Of a stretch of DNA of 64,000 nucleotides, positions 2,700-24,314 are shown piece by piece (within the stretch, counting starts at the first letter, position 1; every line of letters begins with the position of its first letter). Source of the DNA: Candidatus Obscuribacterales bacterium (GTDB lineage Bacteria; Cyanobacteriota; Vampirovibrionia; Obscuribacterales; Obscuribacteraceae). The stretch covers positions 576,001 to 640,000 of the forward strand of contig CBDDIJ010000002.1 in NCBI GenBank assembly GCA_965228855.1, given 5' to 3'. Under the pieces are notes generated by a model. It searched no databases. It saw only the letters and a program-made list of their open reading frames with translations, and was not told the DNA's origin. The translations under genes were made by a program, and so were the position numbers.

Positions 2700-3150
2700 A
2701 GCGCGCGCAGCGGAGAAACGAGAAGCCGTCGCCATCGAAGACGTCTCTCGAGCAACTCCGGCCCAAAGGCGCCCGGAGGCTCCGCAGATACCGTCAAAGC
2801 GCTCGGTGGTCATTCGAGCAATCGCACAGTCAACGACGTCGTGCGCAACGCCAAGATAATTTCCGGCGCGGGCAACGTTCGCGGCGCACCCTAAGCACTA
2901 TCCGATAGCGGCGCTACGAGAGAAATGCGAGAAAAAAGAGACGGTCATTTGCGGAGCAGTCAAAGTCGCACCGGTTGCAGGTGACACGCCGCCGCTCAAA
3001 TCGCTTGCAGACCGAACGGGTGTTACCGATCGCGCCACCGAATTTGTTCAGCAAAAATCGAAGAGTCCCCAAAAGGCGAAAAGGCAAAGCCCGCAACAGA
3101 CGATGCGAACAAACAGCACCATGTGCTCTACCGTTAGCAGGGAAGCGGCA
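2700..3150 (+). pseudogene. degenerate copy of the gene at 1-353
   Basis: 2818 onward aligns by eye to position 1 onward (gcaatcgcac..gtgcgcaacgccaagataat..ggagcagtcaaagtcgcaccggtt..gatgcgaacaaacagcac), with a stop and indels. The left boundary is approximate. Confidence 0.7.
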
Positions 3151-3652
3151 ACGAACGAGCAGACAATCAACACATTGTCTCGCTACAAAGGCAGCGTAAC
3201 TAGGCACTGCAGACGCGCCTTTGCGACGCGCCAATTTTACTCTGCCTAAAATAGCCATTTTAAGCAATGACAATCGGACGACAAACTTTCAGATTGCCCA
3301 AAGGCAGCAGCTACACTCAGATTTTCGATTGGTGTTGCTTGCGCCAAACACAGCCGAAAGTAGGTGTTTTAGGCTGACTTTTGTCAAAAAAGGAGCGCTG
3401 ATAATTCGCTCCTGAAAAGTTCCTAGAAGGTTAAGAGTAGGAACTTATCGGTCAAAAAAGCTTAGCACCAACCTCGAATAGCCCAGACTTCGTTTAGCAA
3501 TGGCTTTATATTCCGTCACCATTTTAAAAGTCGGAATTGTGTCTTCAAAAAAAGAAAAATGAAATTTAAAATTGGTCCAGATCGATGCGTGTGGCTATTG
3601 TTTTTTTCTTGGGCTAAAGGGGATTCATGTGAACGCAGACGAAGAGGGAGAG

Positions 3653-4609
3653 ATGTCGGCGCAAAGTTATTTAAACCGCGCCTTAAGGATTATTCAAAAA
3701 CATGCTTTGAACAGTGATTTAGTCAATTGGCCGGAGCTTAGAGAACAGTGTTTTCGAATGGCTCGGGGAGCTAAAAGTAATACTGAAACTTACGAGGCAA
3801 TCCGTCATGCCATTCAAAGTCTCGGAGACGGACACAGCTTTCTTCTCGTGCCGAAGTTTCAATCAGAGGAGGTGGAGGGATCGCCGCCGAGCGCCGTGCC
3901 GGTTTCTCGGCCCAGCATCGCGAGTTTCTATTTTGAGGAATTCCACGTAGCAGCAATCAAGGTTCCTTCTTTCTCATCAATTCTTCAACCAAATCGCCTA
4001 GAACTCGAAACACAGTTTTCTGCTGAAATGCAACAAACAATTGCTCAACAGCTTCTTCGGCGTCCAAAAGGATGGATTGTTGACTTGCGAGGAAACATGG
4101 GCGGTAACATGTGGCCAATGCTGTGTGGATTAGGTCCACTGATGGGACAAGAGGTGGTCGGGTATTTCAAAGCTTCAAAGCACTGTCTCGCGTGGTTCTA
4201 TTTTCTAGGCAGAGCGGGTCTTCGAAGCATGGATGGCACTGAGACCGTCAAAGTAGAAATTCAACACCCGGTCCTTCATCAAATAACTGAGAGCGTTCCT
4301 GTTGCGGTTTTGATTGACCAAACTACAGCAAGTTCCGGAGAAGCTATCGGAATTGCATTTCGCAGCCGGCTAAACACGCGCTTTTTCGGGCAGCAATCTC
4401 GCGGACTTTGTACAGGAAACGGACCGGTCGAATTGAGTGATGGAGTTCAACTAATCCTGACAAAAACTGTTTTCCTAGACCGACAAGGCTCCTCTTATCC
4501 AAATGGGATTTTTCCCGACGTGTTCGTTGAACCAACAGATGCAAATCCTACGGACGGAGACCGAACAGTTGACGCGGCTCTCAGCTGGTTTAAAAGACAT
4601 CATGTGTAG
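3653..4609 (+). CDS. S41 family peptidase, nisin-resistance-protein (NSR)-like
   Basis: GDGHS, IVDLRGNMGGNMWPM and TASSGE motifs. Start ATG 3653 follows GAGGGAG (the ORF track starts at 3572). Confidence 0.85.
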   Translation: MSAQSYLNRALRIIQKHALNSDLVNWPELREQCFRMARGAKSNTETYEAIRHAIQSLGDGHSFLLVPKFQSEEVEGSPPSAVPVSRPSIASFYFEEFHVAAIKVPSFSSILQPNRLELETQFSAEMQQTIAQQLLRRPKGWIVDLRGNMGGNMWPMLCGLGPLMGQEVVGYFKASKHCLAWFYFLGRAGLRSMDGTETVKVEIQHPVLHQITESVPVAVLIDQTTASSGEAIGIAFRSRLNTRFFGQQSRGLCTGNGPVELSDGVQLILTKTVFLDRQGSSYPNGIFPDVFVEPTDANPTDGDRTVDAALSWFKRHHV

Positions 4610-4647: not shown

Positions 4648-7600
4648 CTATACAGCCACCGATTGGGAACTTTGATTCTCTGTATTACAGGGTCGCATGA
4701 TCAGCGCCTCTACGCTGTTGGAAAGAAGGGCAAGGGTTTCGTTCTCAGCTTTCCTATCAATTCCTAGAAGGCGGTTACAGTGCATGTGAATGCACGCGCT
4801 CAAAATACTGAGCAAGGGCTGGGTTAACTTGCCATTTTCTTCAAGCTTACGTAACTCCCGACCAATTCGTTTGATACCGGACATCGAGTGGAAGCGGATT
4901 GCGTGAGCGATATTCTTAAGTTCGGTATTGCACGTTTTCATTGGGCTCGTTAAGGCAGCGTACAAGTCATTCTTCCAGACTCTATATTCTGCGGAGACAG
5001 AACGCTTAATGCCCAACGGGAAAGCATTCTTCAACAACTCTCTCTTCTCCTCGTTGCTAATGCCCAACGAGCTTAGAAGGTTGTCTATCGACAGTATGCA
5101 CGCTAGGCGTCGATCAAGACTCTTTATTTCCGGCATCGATAACAATTGGCATGCATTTATCGAATCGATACAGAAAAGCTCCTCAACAAGACTCATAGCA
5201 AGTGTTCCGCCGTAACGTTCAACTTCACGATCGTAAGTCATGACTGAGAACTCGGAGCACACGTCGGCACTGGCTAACTGGTTGGCCCACGGCAAGATTT
5301 TTGAAAGCAGAGTTTCATACGCTACTTCAGTATGAAACCTTACGCGCAAGTGATCTCCAGCGCTGTCTTGGTAGCGCACAAAAAACCACTCTTTCAAAAA
5401 TCCTTGGTCGGTCAGAGAATTCGCCATACTATTGCATTCACGAATCGCAGCTTCCTGAATACTAGTGCCACAGTTTAGCCGCAAGTACAACCAGTCACTT
5501 CCCGGGAGTCGTAGGTAATCACTACGAGTGTTTGGCATTACTGGCTGAAATTGCAGTAGCTTTGACTCGCTTTTCTGGGCATCTTTCAGCAAATCGATTC
5601 GCACAAGACTTACGACTATTTCGGACATGTAGTGGCCGTCATCTGTTGAGTGCCAGTTATGGCAAGGCAAATATTCGCGTAGCGTACGTGCCGATCCTCT
5701 TGCAAGAGCGGAACGAAGCAACTCACAATCCTCTGTCAAAGTCAGATTTAAGAGCAGAGGGCGATCATCATCCTTACCAAAAGACATTTGAACAAATGAG
5801 GGCACCTTCCAAACTGTTCGCCACTTTTGTAAGTGATTGAAAAATGCTTTCGGGGTGTTCTTGGAAATTACAGATATCTCTTTGAGGTCCCACTGTGCAG
5901 ACCGCAGGACCAGATTTCCAACAGTCAACCGAGGAAGAAAGGGTAGTTTTTCTGCTGTGCCCCAATTAAACTCCGACACGTTTGGGGAGTCATCGGCTGC
6001 AATTTCAAGTAGAAAGCGGATTGCATTAGGTGCTGAAGCCCAATTGAGCATGTTGTTAGATTTTGCGATTATCTTTTGACCAGTCTGATTCCATCGAGCG
6101 CAGAAACGGCCATCTTTATCTAATCCCACAACAATTTCTGAGAGTGGAATGTCGTTGGAGCTGGAATTCGGATAGCAGCGGGCGATTATCGAATAATTTC
6201 TGAAGCCCCGTACGGTAGACACGTTCCCGGCCCTAGATTTAGCTGGCCAATAACTTACATCTGCGTAGATTGCGGATCTATCTTCTGCTTCCTCGACTAC
6301 GGCGATATTTCTCAAAAATTCGTTGGCCTCTTCTCCGAACATATCCGCGAATCGACCAAGCGTTCGACCAGCTCCAATCTCACCAGCTCTCGGTGCGACC
6401 GCAACTTTGAAGTTTCCAGCATCAATATCTTGACGAGAGTCTGCCAGAATGTTGACAAACAAATCCAGACTTGATGGAAGAGCGACTTGTGTCTGTGGAG
6501 TCTCAAGTGTTTTCAGGTCTGTTTCAGAGAGCTCAACCGCAGTCACCCCGTCCTTCAGAGCAGTCGAGGCTATACTGAGAAGCAACTGCTCCCTTTTTTG
6601 CAGCGACTCGGGCGTTGATTGGCGAATGGGAAAGGGACAGCCTAAGCCGAAAGTTTCATCCAGTAATTCGAGAATTGGTATTTCCCGACCCATCTGATAC
6701 CTGTTCCGAAAGGCCGCTGCAAATTTGGTTAACCCACGCGTTGCTTTTACAGTGTTCAAACGGATACACAGTTCGGCAGCTTTCGACACTTCCACTGCTA
6801 CTTTGTTCGAGAGCATCTTCCCCTGTAGCCCTAAGGACGAATCCACTTGAATTGCATTCCCTCCGTCCGTGTCCGTTGGTCGCGAGGTTTTTAAAAGCTC
6901 AACCAGACGAAGATATTCAACGCTGGATTTGGTAATTCCGTTATCCCAGTTGCTCAAAGCCGCTTTTATTTTTTCCAGTGTACGGGCGTCCGAATGCCTT
7001 CGAAACGTGGGATTGTTGAGCAGATCACGCAGTGGGTCATCAGTGAGCAAAGGCATTCGTAGTTCTGATATGAGGATAGATAAGTCGCACATCTGGTGAA
7101 AAGCATCTTCAACCAACTCACGATCCGCTTGAAACTCACTAGCAATTTGAGCAGCGACTTTTGCGAAAGTTTTCGTCCCCTGGCAAAGGTCTAAGATGCG
7201 AGTGACTGCAGCCGTAACCCTAATGCTCACAGTTTTATTTTTTGAATTGATTGGAGTAATCCAGATACGGTTTGCTGCGTTAAACGCTTCCGGATTTTGC
7301 CGATAGCGCAGCTTCCTGCGGAAAGTGCGGTCACTTTCCAGCTCCTCGACTAAATTCATTATCAGCGTAGAATCAGTCCGTGAGCGTGTCCGGTGATTAC
7401 CAGAGAACGATAAATCTGTTTTGGATCCGAAATGACCCAATGCAACGCCCGCGAAAAGTCCAAAGGGAGTCGGTCTTGAGGACATTCTTTTCTGATACTG
7501 ATACCACTTGCTTTCGGCTTTTTCGCCAGCGTTGTTGAATAGCGATGGACTTGCCACTGCAACCGCAGTCCGAAATAACTCGCTGAATTTCTCTGGCAAA

Positions 7601-7680
7601 GTAGCATCGGCGCATTCGATAGGAAGTAAAGGCGAACGGAGTAGGAAGGTATCTAATACCTTGTAGCTTGCCTTCGGCAT
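4648..7680 (-). CDS. lanB: class I lanthipeptide dehydratase, full length (glutamylation + elimination domains)
   Basis: 1010 aa. LLRSPLLP and RMSSRPTPFGLFAGV at the N-terminus; WFFVRYQD..HLRVRF, YDREVERYGG and HMHCNRLLG at the C-terminus. Confidence 0.95.
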   Translation of the reverse strand: MPKASYKVLDTFLLRSPLLPIECADATLPEKFSELFRTAVAVASPSLFNNAGEKAESKWYQYQKRMSSRPTPFGLFAGVALGHFGSKTDLSFSGNHRTRSRTDSTLIMNLVEELESDRTFRRKLRYRQNPEAFNAANRIWITPINSKNKTVSIRVTAAVTRILDLCQGTKTFAKVAAQIASEFQADRELVEDAFHQMCDLSILISELRMPLLTDDPLRDLLNNPTFRRHSDARTLEKIKAALSNWDNGITKSSVEYLRLVELLKTSRPTDTDGGNAIQVDSSLGLQGKMLSNKVAVEVSKAAELCIRLNTVKATRGLTKFAAAFRNRYQMGREIPILELLDETFGLGCPFPIRQSTPESLQKREQLLLSIASTALKDGVTAVELSETDLKTLETPQTQVALPSSLDLFVNILADSRQDIDAGNFKVAVAPRAGEIGAGRTLGRFADMFGEEANEFLRNIAVVEEAEDRSAIYADVSYWPAKSRAGNVSTVRGFRNYSIIARCYPNSSSNDIPLSEIVVGLDKDGRFCARWNQTGQKIIAKSNNMLNWASAPNAIRFLLEIAADDSPNVSEFNWGTAEKLPFLPRLTVGNLVLRSAQWDLKEISVISKNTPKAFFNHLQKWRTVWKVPSFVQMSFGKDDDRPLLLNLTLTEDCELLRSALARGSARTLREYLPCHNWHSTDDGHYMSEIVVSLVRIDLLKDAQKSESKLLQFQPVMPNTRSDYLRLPGSDWLYLRLNCGTSIQEAAIRECNSMANSLTDQGFLKEWFFVRYQDSAGDHLRVRFHTEVAYETLLSKILPWANQLASADVCSEFSVMTYDREVERYGGTLAMSLVEELFCIDSINACQLLSMPEIKSLDRRLACILSIDNLLSSLGISNEEKRELLKNAFPLGIKRSVSAEYRVWKNDLYAALTSPMKTCNTELKNIAHAIRFHSMSGIKRIGRELRKLEENGKLTQPLLSILSACIHMHCNRLLGIDRKAENETLALLSNSVEALIMRPCNTENQSSQSVAV

Positions 7681-7696
7681 TTAGGTCTCCTTTAAG

Positions 7697-8992
7697 TTAG
7701 GAAAGAAGAGCAATACGGTCCCACTTGGGAGCCACCGGATTGATTGAGGCTATGAGGACCAAAAGAATTCCGGAGACTCCAGTCATCAAGCTTAAATCGG
7801 TTGTATCGTCTCCATTCGTTCCGAGTTTCCAAAATTTCAAGTCAGCCAACGAGTCGTATTGATCCACAATCTTGTCAAACAAGTCTAAACACTGAGCTTG
7901 ATGTTCTGCACTACCCGTTTCATTGAAAAAACGGAGCATAATCTGTAACAGCCCCGCCACTCCGTGGCAGAAAGTTGGTGTGCTGGCTTCCCAATCGGTA
8001 CCTGCTCTAGAAACCGCTTGTAGCGCAACTCTTTTGTTATCGTCTCTATTAAGAGCAACTCCTGACAGATATAACGCTCTGGCGACTCCGGGAGCTCCAT
8101 AGCACCAAGCGGCACGATGACACCGCTCAGTAGACGTCGCGTTTCGCACGATACTGCCGTCGAAGGTACATGCCACGGGCCAGTTTAAACCGGCTGTTGT
8201 AGTTTCTAAACGATTCATGATTATAAACTGTGAGATGCGTTCGATTGCTTCTTGCATGCCACTGCATTTGATACCATTCTGCCAAGCTAATGATAAAAGC
8301 ATGAGCAGTCCTGGCAACCCATGCGAAAGCCCTAAATTGATTAGACCGTTTTTGTACGCACGCTTGCTTTTATCTTGAATTGGAAGCATAGATCTCGGAG
8401 TATAAAAGCCCATAAGGTCATCCTTACTATTTGTGCGTGTACACAGCCAGAGCAATATGGCACTGAGAGCGTCAGAATCTCTACCACTTTGCACCCTTTC
8501 GAGAAGGTATGCACCGACTCCGGTAAGCCCGGAGATCAAGTCGTAGTGACTTGGTGATAGGCCCCTCTCAGAGCTAGATAGTTGTCGCAGAAGAACCACA
8601 ATATGTTCCGAGACCGTTTGATCAATAGCCGACAAAAGCTGCTTGTATGCTTGACCTTGTTTCACCAGGGAACAGTGCAGACCAAGACCAGCTAAGCCAC
8701 CATGTAATGCAATACTTGAAGAACGACGAGTTAATTGGAACGCCTCCTGGAGATGAGCATGCGAAACGTAATCAAGGTTCGAGTCAGGCATAAGCTCATG
8801 AGCCACACCTAGAGCGTACATTAGTCCCACATGAGAACGCTGATTGACTTTCAAAACCAGCGGTGAGTCGGAGGATTTGATGATCGACTTTACGATGTTT
8901 TGGTCAGTACATGATTGGACAAGCGACCGAATCACTTCCTGAGCTTTAATTTTTCGAGGTTCATCAAGAGGGGATGCCCACATTTTTTTCAT
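7697..8992 (-). CDS. lanC: lanthionine cyclase LanC
   Basis: 431 aa. YDLISGLTG, GLSHGLPG, WCYGAPG and FCHGVAG (Cys/Cys/His zinc ligands present), LMTGVSG. Confidence 0.95.
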   Translation of the reverse strand: MKKMWASPLDEPRKIKAQEVIRSLVQSCTDQNIVKSIIKSSDSPLVLKVNQRSHVGLMYALGVAHELMPDSNLDYVSHAHLQEAFQLTRRSSSIALHGGLAGLGLHCSLVKQGQAYKQLLSAIDQTVSEHIVVLLRQLSSSERGLSPSHYDLISGLTGVGAYLLERVQSGRDSDALSAILLWLCTRTNSKDDLMGFYTPRSMLPIQDKSKRAYKNGLINLGLSHGLPGLLMLLSLAWQNGIKCSGMQEAIERISQFIIMNRLETTTAGLNWPVACTFDGSIVRNATSTERCHRAAWCYGAPGVARALYLSGVALNRDDNKRVALQAVSRAGTDWEASTPTFCHGVAGLLQIMLRFFNETGSAEHQAQCLDLFDKIVDQYDSLADLKFWKLGTNGDDTTDLSLMTGVSGILLVLIASINPVAPKWDRIALLS

Positions 8993-9015
8993 CCTTTAAA
9001 CGATTGTTGAATGAT

Positions 9016-9047
9016 CAAAAACAGGGAGGGCTTTCGCCCTCCCTGTT
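9016..9047 (-). terminator. intrinsic terminator/attenuator between Rhs and lanC
   Basis: On the minus strand: aacagggagggc-GAAA-gccctccctgtt followed by a T run. Confidence 0.85.
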
Positions 9048-9081
9048 CTAGCCCAGATTTTGAAAGGTCAACAGAAGTTAC

Positions 9082-14550
<5,469 letters not shown>

Positions 14551-14629
14551 GTTTGCTTCCTTTTTGTTCGTATTGAAACCAGCTGCAACATCCTGTTGAA
14601 GCTGGTTAAACTGCAGTGATTGATTGCGG

Positions 14630-14776
14630 TTAGCAGCCACCACCACCGCAGGTGGTGACAACAGAAGTCCTGTTGCCAGCGGCATCGTAGTTGTAGACTA
14701 CGGTCGTGCCATTGGCAAAAGTAATTTTCTTGAGCCAGCCCTGGGGCCAGTACTCATATGTAGCGGCGTCTGTCAT
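14630..14776 (-). CDS. 48-aa mini YD/RHS-repeat protein (not in ORF track)
   Basis: MTDAATYEYWPQGWLKKITFANGTTVVYNYDAAGNRTSVVTTCGGGGC*. AAGGAG Shine-Dalgarno upstream; typical YD hairpin YxYDAAGNRT. Confidence 0.8.
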   Translation of the reverse strand: MTDAATYEYWPQGWLKKITFANGTTVVYNYDAAGNRTSVVTTCGGGGC

Positions 14777-15403: not shown

Positions 15404-15964
15404 CTAACGACTTTTGATGGTTCCGTTTGAAATGCTTTTGCGGAAAACATCGCGCAAAGCAGGGTCCTTCAAGTTCTCGATGATGGCGCGCTGCTCCTTC
15501 GCCAGGTCCGTATCCGCAAGCCGGAGAACCGTGTCGAGCGCCTGCTTGTAGAGTGCCGCAATCTGCTCGTTATTCAGCTGGCCATTCATGCCCTGCTCGC
15601 AGAGGCGATATAGGCTCTCGCGCAGAACAAGCACAAGCTGTGTTCGCCCTGCGAGCTCGACGATCTTCTGCTGAAGTTCAACCTGTGCGTTCGCATCAGC
15701 ATTCGCCTGCTGGAGCTTCAGGTTTGCGATGATATTGGTGATGGACTCCATCGCGACATCGGGCGCGGGCTCAGCACACATCTTCATGCTGCCGTCACCG
15801 GGCAGGATATATGCACCACGCCTGGTTGCGTCGTAATCAATCGCGTAAGATTTACCTGTCTCCAACGCATGAGTGCGCATGGGTGATGTCATTGACGCGC
15901 ATCCAGACAGAAGCGAAGCTGCACAGATTGCCGCAATACAAAGGGATAGACTTTTCTTCATCAC
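15404..15964 (-). CDS. putative lipoprotein
   Basis: Basic N-terminus, hydrophobic stretch and lipobox LLSG|C. Confidence 0.75.
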   Translation of the reverse strand: MMKKSLSLCIAAICAASLLSGCASMTSPMRTHALETGKSYAIDYDATRRGAYILPGDGSMKMCAEPAPDVAMESITNIIANLKLQQANADANAQVELQQKIVELAGRTQLVLVLRESLYRLCEQGMNGQLNNEQIAALYKQALDTVLRLADTDLAKEQRAIIENLKDPALRDVFRKSISNGTIKSR

Positions 15965-15972
15965 GATTTCCT

Positions 15973-16431
15973 TTACTTTAGTTTCGGCTGGAAGAATTTC
16001 AGTTTCATCGCTGCCGCTTCAATGATTGGAATTGTCAGCGTGGTCAGTATCAGCAAAAGAGAGCCATAGACAGGTCGGTAGATGTCCGGGAAGGTCAGTG
16101 CAAAAGGACCGCCCAGGGCAAAGACCCAGACCGCAAATGCCACTGTTGCCGCACAACAGTGAAAACGTACAGATTGCTTCTCAGCTTCCTCTGACGGGCG
16201 ATACTTTATGTATAGAGGGGTGAGGACGAGGAGGAAAACAAAAACGCCCCAGTAAAGCCACACAGCAATCGGATCTGAAACCATTTCCTCTCGCAAAATA
16301 CCGTCGATAGCAATGTACGCTGCATTCAATTCGCCCGGTATGTATTTGATGAGCTTCTCAAAATATGAGCTCGTACGTGGATCCGGTGGCGTTGGAGTAT
16401 CGGAATTCTTGTCGTCAGGTTCATCAGACAT
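15973..16431 (-). CDS. small integral membrane protein of unknown function
   Basis: About 4 hydrophobic segments. Likely start MSDEP at 16431; 8-bp gap to the lipoprotein gene. Confidence 0.7.
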   Translation of the reverse strand: MSDEPDDKNSDTPTPPDPRTSSYFEKLIKYIPGELNAAYIAIDGILREEMVSDPIAVWLYWGVFVFLLVLTPLYIKYRPSEEAEKQSVRFHCCAATVAFAVWVFALGGPFALTFPDIYRPVYGSLLLILTTLTIPIIEAAAMKLKFFQPKLK

Positions 16432-17223
16432 GACCGAGCCTTTCACTAGGATTGAGAGATGACAGTTCCTAACTTCGTTGACAGTAGACAACGGAAGAGT
16501 CTCGTTGCGCAGTCAGTGACTTTACTCCCGGATTTTGTGCCGTCGGGATATTAGAGGTCTTACTAAAAGGTGGCCGTATCCGCATCGCAAAAGAGAGTTT
16601 GAAAACTTCTTGTTTGGCGGTACATTTATTGCAGTGGTGGCAGACCTCAAGTAAAGGTGGAAGTTAAGAGATAAGCCGATACTAGTCAGTCCGCCGCCAC
16701 TGAATCAATGATCACACCGCAAACACAACTGTAACGAATTTCAGTCAGTCCGATGAAATCCGAAAACGTTGACTATGCAATGCTTTGTAGCCGACAGGCT
16801 ACAGTGACCCTTTACACTTCATCATTCCTTTAACTTTCAAAAGTCCCAGCACCAGCGGCTTCTCGAAATACCTCCGCTAGCGATTGAAGCTGAACCTCCG
16901 TCGGCTTCACATAACTTCTATGAGGGCGCGGTAGCGCGCTTTGCAGAGCAATGGCTGCTTTCCGTATCATTACGAGATGAAGTCTTCGTATACATGACAC
17001 CGTATTTAGTGACGGACGAAAGTCTGCACAGGTTCGCAAATAGATAGCCTTGAGATTTCCTTAGATTGGAATAATCGTACGAACGGGTGATTGAAAAAGA
17101 TTCTTTCCTACGGATAATAGTATTCGAACGCTTATCTCTTGACATCCAGCTAAATGCCACTCAAATGCTTGCTCTGTCTGACGAGCGAGCATTTTTGCAC
17201 CTGGCGGAAATAGGGGTCGCTAG

Positions 17224-19105: not shown

Positions 19106-19333
19106 ATGACAACCTCTGTTCGATTTGACGATTTAATTGAGAAGCGCTTGGATGAGCTTGCGAAGAAAACCGGTCGCACCAAGAGCTACTACATTCGTGA
19201 ATTGGTCGAAAGCCATATTGACGACTTGGAAGACTACTACCTTGGAAGCAGTACCTTGGAACGTGTCCGAGCAGGAAAAGAAAAAGTACATACCAGTGCA
19301 TCCGTGAGAGAGCAACTTGGCTTGGACGATTGA
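19106..19333 (+). CDS. relB: type II antitoxin, ribbon-helix-helix (RelB/StbD-like)
   Basis: MTTSVRFDDLIEKRLDELAKKTGRTKSYYIRE..DLEDYY; overlaps the toxin start. Confidence 0.85.
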   Translation: MTTSVRFDDLIEKRLDELAKKTGRTKSYYIRELVESHIDDLEDYYLGSSTLERVRAGKEKVHTSASVREQLGLDD

Positions 19334-19736
19334 CTATTCCGATAGTGTTCTAAAACAGCTTAAAAAGCTCGATAAGCCAGTCGCGAAAAAAGTGCTCGCG
19401 TACATGGACGAGCGAATAGCTGTCTTGGAAGATCCAGCAACTGCCGGTAAGCCTCTAACTGGCAGGCTTGGTAATCTTCACCGCTACCGAGTAGGTGACA
19501 TCCGCGTTGTTTGCTTCATCTCCAAGGAAACTGTATCTGTCCTAGTTTTGCGGGTGGCCCATCGAAGCAAAGTCTATGAGGATGAGGATAAATTTGCAAC
19601 AAAAGCTTCGTCGGAAGTGAACGCGTTCCTGCAACGGAAGGAGGATGAAGATTCCGAAAAAGAACTTGCTGAGGGTCTCGAATATTTGGACAAAGAGTAC
19701 AAAGCTCATATAGAGCGGCAGGAGAGAGAGAGTTAA
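19317..19736 (+). CDS. relE: RelE/StbE family toxin with acidic C-terminal extension
   Basis: MAWTIDY..GKPLTG..RYRVGDIRV..HRSKVY, plus ~50 extra residues. Confidence 0.85.
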   Translation: MAWTIDYSDSVLKQLKKLDKPVAKKVLAYMDERIAVLEDPATAGKPLTGRLGNLHRYRVGDIRVVCFISKETVSVLVLRVAHRSKVYEDEDKFATKASSEVNAFLQRKEDEDSEKELAEGLEYLDKEYKAHIERQERES

Positions 19737-21956: not shown

Positions 21957-24314
21957 ATGACATCAGTATCGGGTCAAGTATTTTTCGCTTATCCATCTCA
22001 GCCCGCCCAGATTGGTACAACGATCGAGGCGGCAGCACAGATACTTAAGGGAGGTGGAATTTCAGCGCGAACCTGGCGAGAGATGGATGTTGCAGGACAT
22101 TTCATAGCCTCTGGAGTAATGCAAGAGATTGATGAAGCAGAATTGGTCGTGCTTGATATTACTCGACTTAACTTCAATGTGACTTTTGAAGCCGGCTATG
22201 CAATGGCTAAACGAAAAAAGCTTTTGCCAATAATGAACACGAGCCTTAACCCCGCAACAAAGGAAATAAGTCAGCTTGGGCTTTTTGATACTCTTGGATA
22301 TGAGACATATCAGAACAGCAACGATCTGGCACGCATCGTAAGCGAAAAGCTCTCTAAGCCAATTGTTGAGTTGAGAGAATATGCAATTGATCATGGAGCA
22401 CCTGTTTATGTTCTTGACACGCTGTATAAAACTGACGCCTCGCTGAGAATTGCTTCGAAGATCAAGAAAACAAAAATTCGCTTCAGGAGTTTCGATCCGA
22501 AAGAACAAGCTCGTCTTTCGGCAATGGAAGCATACCGGAATGTTGCACAATCAGTTGCAGTGGTTATCAATCTTCTCTCGTCCCAAGCGACCGACTTCGA
22601 TAGAAACAACCTGCGAGGTGCCTTCCTAACCGGTCTCGCGTTCGGTATGGACAGAGAAACAGTTGTATTTCAGGACGGTCAAGAGCCGGTACCGCTGGAC
22701 TACAGGGATTTTGTGACTGTGTACAAAGGTCCGAATGATATCGATCCTCAAATAAATGCTCTCGCTCCAAAAGTCATTGATGCCTTACAAGCACAAATAG
22801 GCCATGTTTCCACACAAACTCTCGGAACGTTAGAAAAGCTGGATTTAGGGGCACCGGCTGCGGAGAACGAGATGGTGAATCTCGGTGAATACTATGTTCC
22901 CACCGACGAATTCAACAAGACTATGGCTGGCACAGTTCGACTAGTGGTGGGACGCAAAGGCGCAGGCAAAACGGCTCTCTTCCTTCAGGTGCGGGATAAG
23001 AAAAGACAGGGTAGAAGTCGTCTCGTATTGGATCTTCGTCCCGAAGGACACCAACTTAAACGTTTTAAAACCGCGGTTTTAGAGGTTCTAGCAGAAGCGG
23101 TTAAAGAGCATATCGCGACTGCCTTTTGGGAGTATTCACTTTTGCTGGAAATCGCATACAAGTTACTTGAGAAGGACCAGCACGCGTACCGACGGGATCA
23201 AGACTTGATGCCCAGATATCTTAAACTGAATGAGATCTACGAGGGCGCGGGTAGAGGAGCTGGTGAAGGCGATTTCTCTGAGAGGCTTCGGGAGCTTACT
23301 GACCGTATAAGTGTGGAATTTGAAACCAAATACGGTATCAAAGGCGTATCACATCTTTCTGTTGGTGAAGTTACGTCCCTCATATACAAGCAAGACATCG
23401 CTGTTCTCAGAGAGACTCTTTGTGATTATCTTCGACAGCGGGATGAGGTGTGGATCTTATTTGACAATATAGATAAGGGCTGGCCAACTCATGGAGTAGC
23501 CATAACTGATATTGTTATTCTAAGAGCCTTGTTGGAGGCGACTCGAAAAATCGAGCAATCATTCGCTCGCAAACATTTAACAGTTCATACCGTGGTGTTT
23601 CTTCGTAATGACGTCTTCGAACTTTTGGTAAATGAATCACCTGACAGAGGAAAGGAAGCACGAGTTTCATTGGACTGGACAGATCCTGATCGGCTTAGGG
23701 AATTGCTACGAAGGCGTATTGTTCATGGGGGGCTTTTTGATGCCGATGCTTCTTTTATGTCAGTTTGGTCATCAATTTGCGCATCTCATGTAGAGGGAAA
23801 CGAATCCTCAGAGTATCTGATAGAACGGTCCTTGATGAGGCCCAGAAACCTGCTTACACTCGTTAGTTACGCGAAGAGTAATGCGGTCAATTTGCGGCAT
23901 AACTTTATTCAACAAGATGACATCATTAAAGCTTGCAATACTCATTCCGCAGATATAGGAAATGAAATCGGACTAGAGATTCGCGATATTTATCCGCTAG
24001 CAGAAGATATTTTGTATTACTTCATGGACTGTAAAAGTTGGATGAACGTACGAGAATTAAAGGAGATTCTCAACAACGCAAAAGTCCCTCCAGTGGAACA
24101 CGCACATGTTATCGAGCTACTGCTCTGGTTTTCATTCCTTGGCGTCGTTCGGGAATCATCATCGGAAGGGGTGATGGAAGTTTTTATTTACGACGTTTTT
24201 TACGACATGAAGAAATTGCGTGTATTAGCGAAGAACCTTGAAGATGACTCCACTGTTCTTTGTGTTCATAAGGCTTTTTGGCCCTTTCTCAATATTTCAG
24301 AGAGACACGGATGA
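21957..24314 (+). CDS. P-loop ATPase with N-terminal TIR/nucleoside-deoxyribosyltransferase-like domain(s); putative defence protein
   Basis: FFAYPS..DITRLNFNVTFEAGYA; Walker A GRKGAGKT; Walker B ILFDNID; RPRN motif. Confidence 0.75.
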   Translation: MTSVSGQVFFAYPSQPAQIGTTIEAAAQILKGGGISARTWREMDVAGHFIASGVMQEIDEAELVVLDITRLNFNVTFEAGYAMAKRKKLLPIMNTSLNPATKEISQLGLFDTLGYETYQNSNDLARIVSEKLSKPIVELREYAIDHGAPVYVLDTLYKTDASLRIASKIKKTKIRFRSFDPKEQARLSAMEAYRNVAQSVAVVINLLSSQATDFDRNNLRGAFLTGLAFGMDRETVVFQDGQEPVPLDYRDFVTVYKGPNDIDPQINALAPKVIDALQAQIGHVSTQTLGTLEKLDLGAPAAENEMVNLGEYYVPTDEFNKTMAGTVRLVVGRKGAGKTALFLQVRDKKRQGRSRLVLDLRPEGHQLKRFKTAVLEVLAEAVKEHIATAFWEYSLLLEIAYKLLEKDQHAYRRDQDLMPRYLKLNEIYEGAGRGAGEGDFSERLRELTDRISVEFETKYGIKGVSHLSVGEVTSLIYKQDIAVLRETLCDYLRQRDEVWILFDNIDKGWPTHGVAITDIVILRALLEATRKIEQSFARKHLTVHTVVFLRNDVFELLVNESPDRGKEARVSLDWTDPDRLRELLRRRIVHGGLFDADASFMSVWSSICASHVEGNESSEYLIERSLMRPRNLLTLVSYAKSNAVNLRHNFIQQDDIIKACNTHSADIGNEIGLEIRDIYPLAEDILYYFMDCKSWMNVRELKEILNNAKVPPVEHAHVIELLLWFSFLGVVRESSSEGVMEVFIYDVFYDMKKLRVLAKNLEDDSTVLCVHKAFWPFLNISERHG

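Follow-up and report, generated by a model that had tools for sequence, protein, structure and literature searches.

What does a pair of class I lanthipeptide enzymes modify when the gene in front of them encodes a giant Rhs protein rather than a small precursor peptide? The question is raised by a locus within a 64,000-nucleotide stretch of DNA, hereafter the window, from Candidatus Obscuribacterales bacterium (assembly GCA_965228855.1, contig CBDDIJ010000002.1, positions 576,001 to 640,000), where the genes for a LanC cyclase and a LanB dehydratase follow an Rhs gene. The locus is a real, conserved hybrid. It belongs strictly to neither parent family: no free LanA precursor was found, and there is no toxin domain with an immunity gene. 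Most likely the hybrid functions in the manner of a class I lanthipeptide pathway incorporated in an Rhs protein. We hold, with a little better than even confidence, that the polymorphic Rhs tail is the precursor, that lanC–lanB occupies the usual immunity-gene slot and that a ringed cargo is released. Gene layout, enzyme motifs, autocleavage aspartates, recurrence and tail composition are the direct observations from which this argument starts.

The Rhs-lan locus

A mini-YD open reading frame (ORF), the Rhs gene, a hairpin, lanC and lanB form one co-directional series on the minus strand. The sequence-only reading of this DNA had described the same series, and Pfam matches and gap sizes confirm it. 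The Rhs gene runs over 9082..14550 from its likely start (~1822 aa) and over 9082-14685 from its first ATG (1867 aa). Met46 (14550) is the likelier start, with a purine-rich run before it and a match to the N terminus of the homologue in genome G109; Rhs residue numbers given here follow the 1867-aa frame. The YD-repeat β-cocoon and Rhs core (9310..12573) lead into a C-terminal tail (9085..9309) of exactly 75 aa, which starts LFDLDV after PLNKTDPLG, just as had been claimed. Its leader-type motif FDLDV (9292..9306) stands one residue past the DPLG cleavage site. No immunity gene follows the tail; the next genes are lanC (7697..8992; 431 aa; LANC_like E 5e-47) and lanB (4648..7680; 1010 aa; Lant_dehydr_N E 4e-138, Lant_dehydr_C E 5e-50), each present in one copy in the genome. 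The Rhs–lanC gap measures 89 nt and holds a GC-rich hairpin followed by a U-run (9017..9048), and the lanC–lanB gap measures 16 nt. In an assembly check against public runs, contigs of two runs, either of which may be the source of the stretch, cover all of it with zero differences, and a single contig from a third run reaches across the tail–hairpin–lanC junction (8837-9416).

Both enzymes look active from their conserved residues. LanB aligns over its full length with 9g04, MibB and NisB and has an RRE-like region, and its PF04738 and PF14028 domains lie near a LanC, the combination by which Walker et al. (bioRxiv 10.1101/2020.03.13.990614) define a class I cluster. The residues reported as essential in NisB (R14, R83, R87, T89, D121, D299, R464, R786, R826 and H961; PMC4341554) have counterparts in LanB at R15, R65, R69, T71, D103, D280, R443, R779/R781, R822 and H965. 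This mapping comes from an alignment to 4wd9, with R14 placed by motif only and R786 falling on R779 or R781, and the positions are invariant columns in 12 LanB homologues. The LanC motifs YD, GLSHG (GxxHG), WCYG and CHG align with those of NisC (2g02). The motifs that we take to be the zinc ligands and the catalytic His/Asp are kept in all four Rhs-linked LanCs.

The Rhs protein itself appears to be a normal cage, judged by predicted fold and autocleavage residues. Both aspartates of the autocleavage site, D1751 (in GRFLQPD) and D1789 (in DPLG), lie within the core and are invariant across 70 aligned sequences. This Asp pair acts in autocleavage in the Rhs core described in PMC11461821, where the caged toxin is unfolded. 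The site thus looks intact, with cleavage itself predicted. An AlphaFold2 model of residues 698-1867 reached a mean predicted local distance difference test (pLDDT) score of 86.6, and Foldseek matched it to the Rhs cages 8qja and 7pq5 of type VI secretion systems (T6SS) at E about 1e-57 to 1e-52. The tail is unstructured in the model (pLDDT <50), which gives no reading of its position relative to the cage.

The tail as candidate precursor

The 75-aa tail has the composition and order of a leader–core peptide. FDLDV at residues 2-6 is followed by a Ser/Thr-rich stretch with Cys28 and Cys34, an acidic DDG repeat (36-55), Cys63 and a basic end, amounting to 3 Cys, 6 Ser and 6 Thr. FDLDV is also the commonest FxLD context among the Cys-rich small ORFs that adjoin related LanCs. 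On a leader profile derived from 27 leaders of free LanAs, the window tail comes first among 170 Rhs tails (score 13.6 vs 7.2 for the runner-up), and F[DN]LD occurs in none of 164 pooled other Rhs tails. The tail matched no NCBIfam domain when toxin domains were looked for. A search with the Rhs C-terminal region gave no FDLD tail among the listed proteins (98/120) that were parsed. A predicted complex between LanB 1-700 and tail 1-40 (score 0.01, controls not folded) weighs neither for nor against the tail.

No competing precursor lies beside the enzymes. A free-standing small LanA (30-120 aa) was not found near the locus, and of 102,638 ORFs scanned across the genome, the 44 in which F[DN]L[DN] precedes two or more Cys all lie away from it. 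Two small ORFs with FxLD and Cys outrank the Rhs tail genome-wide; these top hits, the only ones inspected singly, both overlap longer genes and were rejected as free LanAs. C39 and S8 peptidases, as a linked transporter or leader peptidase would have, exist in the genome and gave no match in the window, where ORFs were annotated up to 24 kb. The earlier observation that free lanA, lanT and lanP are missing nearby holds within this range. These results support the tail as the best LanA candidate of the locus. That it is a LanB/LanC substrate in one manner or another, as Rhs cargo or in the uncaged forms weighed below, we consider likely.

Recurrence and phylogeny

Among 107 genomes of the order, PF04738 is present in 13 and the Rhs family in 58. 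The gene order Rhs–lanC–lanB is found in the window locus (G000), in G075 and G109 and in the metagenome locus L189; G028 carries Rhs–lanB. The layout therefore recurs in four other distinct loci (three lanC–lanB, one lanB only), and genome G096 adds a split form, in which a degenerate Rhs-core fragment is followed by a separate 161-aa precursor-like ORF, lanC and lanB. That ORF combines FDIQV with a Cys/Thr stretch, a PG repeat and a Cys at its end, and ranks fourth on the leader profile. It stands at the end of an orphan array that belongs to another Rhs type and is interspersed with integrases (L033:9918-10990, L201). On its sequence, it has the same plan as the lan-linked tails and behaves like a swappable cassette.

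The remaining lan-bearing genomes differ. G072 has the G075 island interrupted by an insertion sequence, and G010 is decayed: its lanC is truncated, and its short contig carries no Rhs. G119 encodes two free FDLDL precursors, and the fragmentary G015 has a lanC fragment without Rhs within 8 kb upstream. A separate LanB clade without adjacent Rhs comprises G032, G067, G068 and G088, with an Rhs fragment 4 kb off at a contig end in G068. No precursor is evident near these genes (L027, L028, L029 and L009, from G068, G088, G067 and G032, respectively); lanC is intact in G067, reduced to a C-terminal remnant in G068 and not seen in G088 or G032, and the genes that come next in G068, and probably in G067, are of an outer-membrane efflux type.

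Beyond these genomes the arrangement is rare. Rhs lies directly upstream in 3 of 80 metagenome LanC loci, of which L189 is new and L131 and L133 repeat G075. Neither lanB nor lanC occurs in 80 fetched Rhs family loci, taken from ~140 listed places mostly for long open frames, up to ~7 kb downstream and less at contig ends; loci of the lan type are thus a small minority of the Rhs family. Viral contigs held no LanC relative. The sole locus returned by a genome-contig scan with the Rhs N terminus was the G109 stretch, a plasmid search gave 160 records, all below 60% identity, and a phylum sample had PF04738 in 3 of 401 genomes, two of these being short weak matches.

The six Rhs-linked LanBs (including split G096) and that of G010 form one clade with an SH-aLRT support of 100 in a tree of 34 rows, kept from 46 after dropping ORFs of at least 1150 aa and wrong-frame or redundant rows. 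Support is 99 under a mixture model with 26 rows. Identities among the lan-linked loci are 34-37% for LanB, 30-37% for LanC and 43-57% for the Rhs cores, and the tails are unalignable. Five LanBs and four LanCs retain intact catalytic motifs. With one LanB clade retaining its motifs at only 34-37% identity, the pairing appears old and kept. In a FastTree analysis of Rhs cores (76 rows), four of the five lan-linked cores form a clade with a support of 97, with G028 nearby. The trees point to one origin with long retention, not to five independent events.

Composition separates the lan-linked tails from the rest of a hypervariable set. The conserved Rhs core carries 83 distinct complete tails, 5 from lan loci and 78 from others, after two incomplete and four unparsed loci were dropped. 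All five lan-linked tails are at most 110 aa (7 of 78 others), all have at least 3 Cys (13 of 78) and all combine this length with three or more Cys that have Ser/Thr among the six residues before them (2 of 78). None of the five is without Cys, vs 52 of 78 of the others.

It is improbable that lanC–lanB is a hitchhiker or relic without its LanA and that the tail stays unmodified, as a Cys-rich peptide toxin or metal-binding peptide resembling the CxC/CxxxC tails of sister Rhs proteins. Such an explanation draws on the mobility of the region, where insertion sequences break the G075-type island in G072 and L131, on decay in G010 and in G028, where lanC was not found, on the terminator-like hairpin between Rhs and lanC, and on the existence of Cys-rich tails without lan genes. 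A relic, however, would not keep its motifs in five LanBs and four LanCs at 30-37% identity. Moreover, most short Cys-rich tails of non-lan loci have CxC and CxxxC patterns and a LolA/DUF2092-like protein of ~240 aa behind them, of which the lan loci gave no example, and FDLDV directly after the cut site has no counterpart in 164 other tails.

These sister tails merit description of their own. Paralogous Rhs proteins at L010:5922-17980 (G000:C5), L056, L062, L064, L065 and L070 have Gly/Ser-rich tails with CxC and CxxxC, and behind the L010 type about six related LolA/DUF2092-like proteins of 240 aa are encoded in tandem. By sequence, this appears to be a second kind of Cys-rich, non-enzymatic cargo, one that has a partner of its own. 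Rhs proteins near the lan-linked clade (L044, L057 and L037) have short Pro-rich repeat tails with no Cys and no recognisable toxin domain.

Points against a matured Rhs cargo

A number of observations weigh against reading the tail as a ringed Rhs cargo, the first set concerning the leader. The tails of G109 (which has 12 Cys), L189 and G028 have no FxLD-like motif (leader profile ranks 166, 153 and 149 of 170), and that of G075 has only YDID (rank 21/170). FxLD is therefore not a rule of the Rhs-lan family, and leader evidence appears strong for the window locus and absent for three relatives. The sequence-only reading had proposed a LanA-like peptide in the Rhs tail, and had pointed to other Rhs genes beside lanBC as places to look for FxLD. 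The layout was indeed found again, and the profile rank, the recurrence and the intact enzymes speak for a LanA-like peptide; the motif did not follow in most relatives, which by that reading's own refuting criterion counts partly against it. Even the window tail scores below all free LanA leaders (20-36, self-included) and does not match the NCBIfam FDLD-family model NF038155, although a free LanA of G119 also falls below that cut-off. It holds just 3 Cys, and its dehydration sites are putative.

A second set concerns the comparison itself. The composition criteria were picked after the data had been seen, Cys-rich tails also occur without lan genes (the 13 of 78 with at least 3 Cys), and the tail contrasts are not five independent events, because the five loci are kin. 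LanC was not found in G028, an 87%-complete genome. The LanC tree is weaker, placing L134 among the Rhs-linked LanCs with weak support, yet L134 has a free FDLDL ORF and no Rhs; as a predictor of Rhs linkage, this tree failed on L134. The L134 precursor (L134:175-453) lies directly upstream of lanC and has an in-frame TAG before its Cys-containing part.

Lastly, Rhs cargo is normally caged unfolded, which could exclude a large enzyme (PMC11461821), and no export route was identified: inspection by eye revealed no signal peptide in Rhs, and five marker families of T6SS, contractile-injection and Tc systems (TssC, sheath, PAAR, VgrG and SpvB) gave no match in the 95%-complete genome. A tail that is modified by LanB and LanC and yet is not a caged, exported toxin would resolve the access problem. 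It could be cut off and mature in the cytoplasm as a LanA using an unlinked transporter, or remain attached to the Rhs as a stapled adhesive or recognition element threaded outside the shell. Teneurin C-terminal domains leave the YD shell by a side gap (PMC6425310), and an Acinetobacter Rhs toxin is often out of its cage before delivery (PMC11461821). The genome encodes an unlinked C39-ABC-type protein and gave no match for the markers just named, and the precursor-like ORF of G096 is encoded apart from its Rhs fragment. We nevertheless think this account unlikely. Both autocleavage aspartates are kept, and bacterial YD proteins having them are presumed to encapsulate their C terminus (PMC6425310). 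A 1790-aa carrier kept across 50% divergence is costly for a mere upstream fusion partner, and the fetched lan loci, annotated by similarity, contain no linked transporter or leader protease.

Companion genes and the hairpin

The mini-YD ORF (14630..14776, minus strand; 48 aa) encodes a single YD hairpin with a Cys-Gly-rich end (Pfam RHS_repeat E 4e-10) and is possibly a lid or first cocoon strand supplied in trans. Of 80 Rhs family loci, 72 have a mini-YD match close to their 5′ end. The window copy ends in Thr-Thr-Cys with a second Cys, similarly to that of G109, and LanB and LanC might act on this end or on an unlinked or unassembled LanA instead of the tail. Completeness of 95% for the genome and the three lan-linked tails without a leader motif speak for such a substrate. 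We judge it very unlikely, as 29 of the 47 mini-YD ORFs that were counted share the Cys-x4-Cys end, almost all of these being without lan genes, as the end is missing in the lan loci of G075 and G028, and as the two top-ranked free FxLD ORFs each shadow a longer gene. The mini-YD ORF was accordingly rejected as a lan-specific part or substrate, being general to the Rhs family.

The Rhs–lanC hairpin (-32.9 kcal/mol, z -4.9) is terminator- or attenuator-like in its sequence. A promoter and terminator scan gave counts at shuffle level and did not list it. Hairpins with z below -2.5 occur in all five lan loci and also 3′ of 44 of 78 non-lan Rhs genes, so the hairpin does not discriminate and was set aside as evidence of a lanA-type attenuator. 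Mini-YD and hairpin, both counted as parts of the locus by the sequence-only reading, are present as described, but neither is lan-specific.

Two features were missed by that reading. The first is a transglutaminase-like domain at the Rhs N terminus (13960..14343, minus strand; Pfam Transglut_core), which resembles the TglA fold (Z 11.2, root-mean-square deviation 3.5, 133 aligned). In 51 sequences His229 and Asp244 are invariant, and the expected catalytic Cys position, as placed by motif, is Ser or Ala; the domain is therefore probably inactive. Fold searches barely tested the C-terminal half of the Rhs N-terminal region.

The second is an S41 peptidase gene on the plus strand (3572..4609), convergent to lanB. 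Its best match in the Protein Data Bank is NSR (4y68, E 2e-17), with a TASSAEM-type Ser motif (TASSGE) and the aligned N-terminal His kept and, in the window copy, no membrane anchor. Within the clade, the gene is a neighbour of lanB at three distinct loci, and it has the same position in the G075/G072/G069 island and in G010. Of 107 genomes, 21 encode an NSR-like S41 protein, and as most of these have no lanB, its association with lan may be loose. As a lead, the peptidase may be a candidate self-protection or trimming enzyme.

This neighbour bears on whether LanB and LanC could themselves be the immunity function, dehydrating and stapling the tail and so inactivating it in the producer or its kin. 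The enzymes do stand where an immunity gene is usual, and in none of the five loci is the tail followed by another such gene. Irreversible modification, however, would disarm the exported cargo too, and the NSR-like peptidase that adjoins lanB at some of the loci is better matched by a toxic modified product. We know of no precedent for lanthipeptide-type modification as immunity, and rate this the least probable of the alternatives, a very unlikely one.

Further out, a lipoprotein-like gene (186 aa) and a membrane protein gene (172 aa) lie upstream on the minus strand (15404..16491) and accompany the Rhs family with or without lan genes. Still further upstream, a ParE-type toxin gene (19317-19736) and a gene for a 785-aa weak AAA protein (21957-24314) lie in a stretch of 44-48% GC vs ~53% for the contig, which is consistent with an island. 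A diverged direct repeat of ~360 bp (window ~1-330 and 2767-3126) brackets a RecD-like helicase gene and a TPR gene.

Discussion

For the reading that we favour, in which the Rhs tail is matured as cargo, the following order of events is proposed. LanB would glutamylate and dehydrate tail Ser/Thr, at the window locus through binding FDLDV, and LanC would form thioether rings onto Cys28, Cys34 and perhaps Cys63. Modification would take place while the tail is still exposed, before cocoon closure or after opening. The core would then cut after DPLG, and the ringed peptide would be carried or released as Rhs cargo against other cells, with the NSR-like S41 peptidase perhaps shielding the producer or trimming the product.

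Enclosure, rather than fusion, is the obstacle to this scheme. NisBC modify NisA fused to the C terminus of pIII or MBP (PMC5686179), and related LanCs adjoin precursors of 225-260 aa with an internal FDLD behind a ~110-aa domain, so fusion as such should be tolerated. For access to an enclosed tail, three routes remain: before cocoon closure, after cytoplasmic release, or on a teneurin-like outside tail. The internal-FDLD precursors, about 220-260 aa long, belong to class I clusters in L117, L120, L122, L127, L135-L137, L145-L150 and L153; they share a conserved ~110-aa N-terminal domain without a Pfam match, followed by internal FDLD and long Cys/Thr repeats, and they exceed the usual mining size limit.

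A more general proposal, which we advance tentatively and at well short of even confidence, is that Rhs cocoons serve as self-cleaving carriers of cyclised peptides. Tail and lanC–lanB would form a swappable cassette, the enzymes would recognise the Rhs core or the nascent Rhs chain, and autoproteolysis and the cage would replace LanP and LanT. Recognition of the core or nascent chain would explain the tails without FxLD.

If the cargo reading holds, polymorphic Rhs toxins and ribosomal peptide natural products, which have been studied separately, are joined in one gene, and a non-enzymatic, enzyme-matured peptide serves as Rhs cargo. A class I precursor would then sit within a protein fifteen times over the size limit of precursor mining, which would cause similar cases to be systematically missed. 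Dehydration could act as a built-in timestamp for when an Rhs tail turns inaccessible during folding, the Rhs-lan loci make it testable how LanB finds substrates without FxLD, and the system could offer a natural scaffold for packaging cyclic peptides.

The sequence-only reading knew of no Rhs hybrid with a ribosomally made peptide that is modified after translation (RiPP), and we likewise found no paper on an Rhs–lanthipeptide hybrid in the open-access literature, judged mostly by title and the start of the abstract. RiPP domains fused to larger proteins have been described for another enzyme family, without Rhs (PMC12452194). The survey of more than 100,000 genomes by Walker et al. dropped candidate ORFs above 120 aa, so an Rhs-tail precursor could not have been called by it. 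Neither RHS nor PF05593 occurs in one text supplement of that survey, whose other supplements may bear on Rhs hybrids.

Compared with class I clusters such as those of nisin (NisA/B/C) and microbisporicin (MibB) and those with FxLD LanAs, the locus has a full-length LanB with the NisB residues, a stand-alone zinc-type LanC, FDLD followed by Ser/Thr/Cys, and a hairpin between precursor and enzyme genes. Unlike them, it is without a small LanA gene, linked LanT or LanP, the proposed precursor is the last 75 aa of a ~1820-aa protein with almost no leader before FDLD, and three homologous tails are without FxLD.

The Rhs toxins of Zhang et al. 2012 (PMC3482391) share the degenerate transglutaminase domain, YD repeats, DPxG core and hypervariable tail, as well as swappable tail-plus-downstream-gene cassettes and orphan arrays. 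In that description, however, the transglutaminase domain is always preceded by a signal peptide or membrane helix, and neither is evident in the present protein. Nor is the tail of the window locus an enzyme domain, and its downstream genes encode modifying enzymes instead of immunity proteins. With T6SS Rhs effectors (RhsA, the Tre23 carrier, Tse15 and RhsP) and Tc B–C shells, the protein has the β-cocoon and the two-aspartate autocleavage site in common. It differs in that the window genome gave no PAAR, VgrG, TssC, sheath or SpvB match, and its 75-aa cargo is far shorter than the 276-295 aa of TcB–TcC (PMC6425310).

For the S41 neighbour, NSR (PDB 4y68, PMC4698656) is the closest solved relative, with the Ser motif and His kept and, unlike NSR, no membrane anchor in the window copy. 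Closest to the proposed reaction are the engineered pIII and MBP fusions (PMC5686179), in which LanB and LanC act on a leader–core unit behind a large protein, as we propose here. Those fusions are artificial and have a full leader and an exposed terminus, whereas the Rhs tail is natural and potentially caged.

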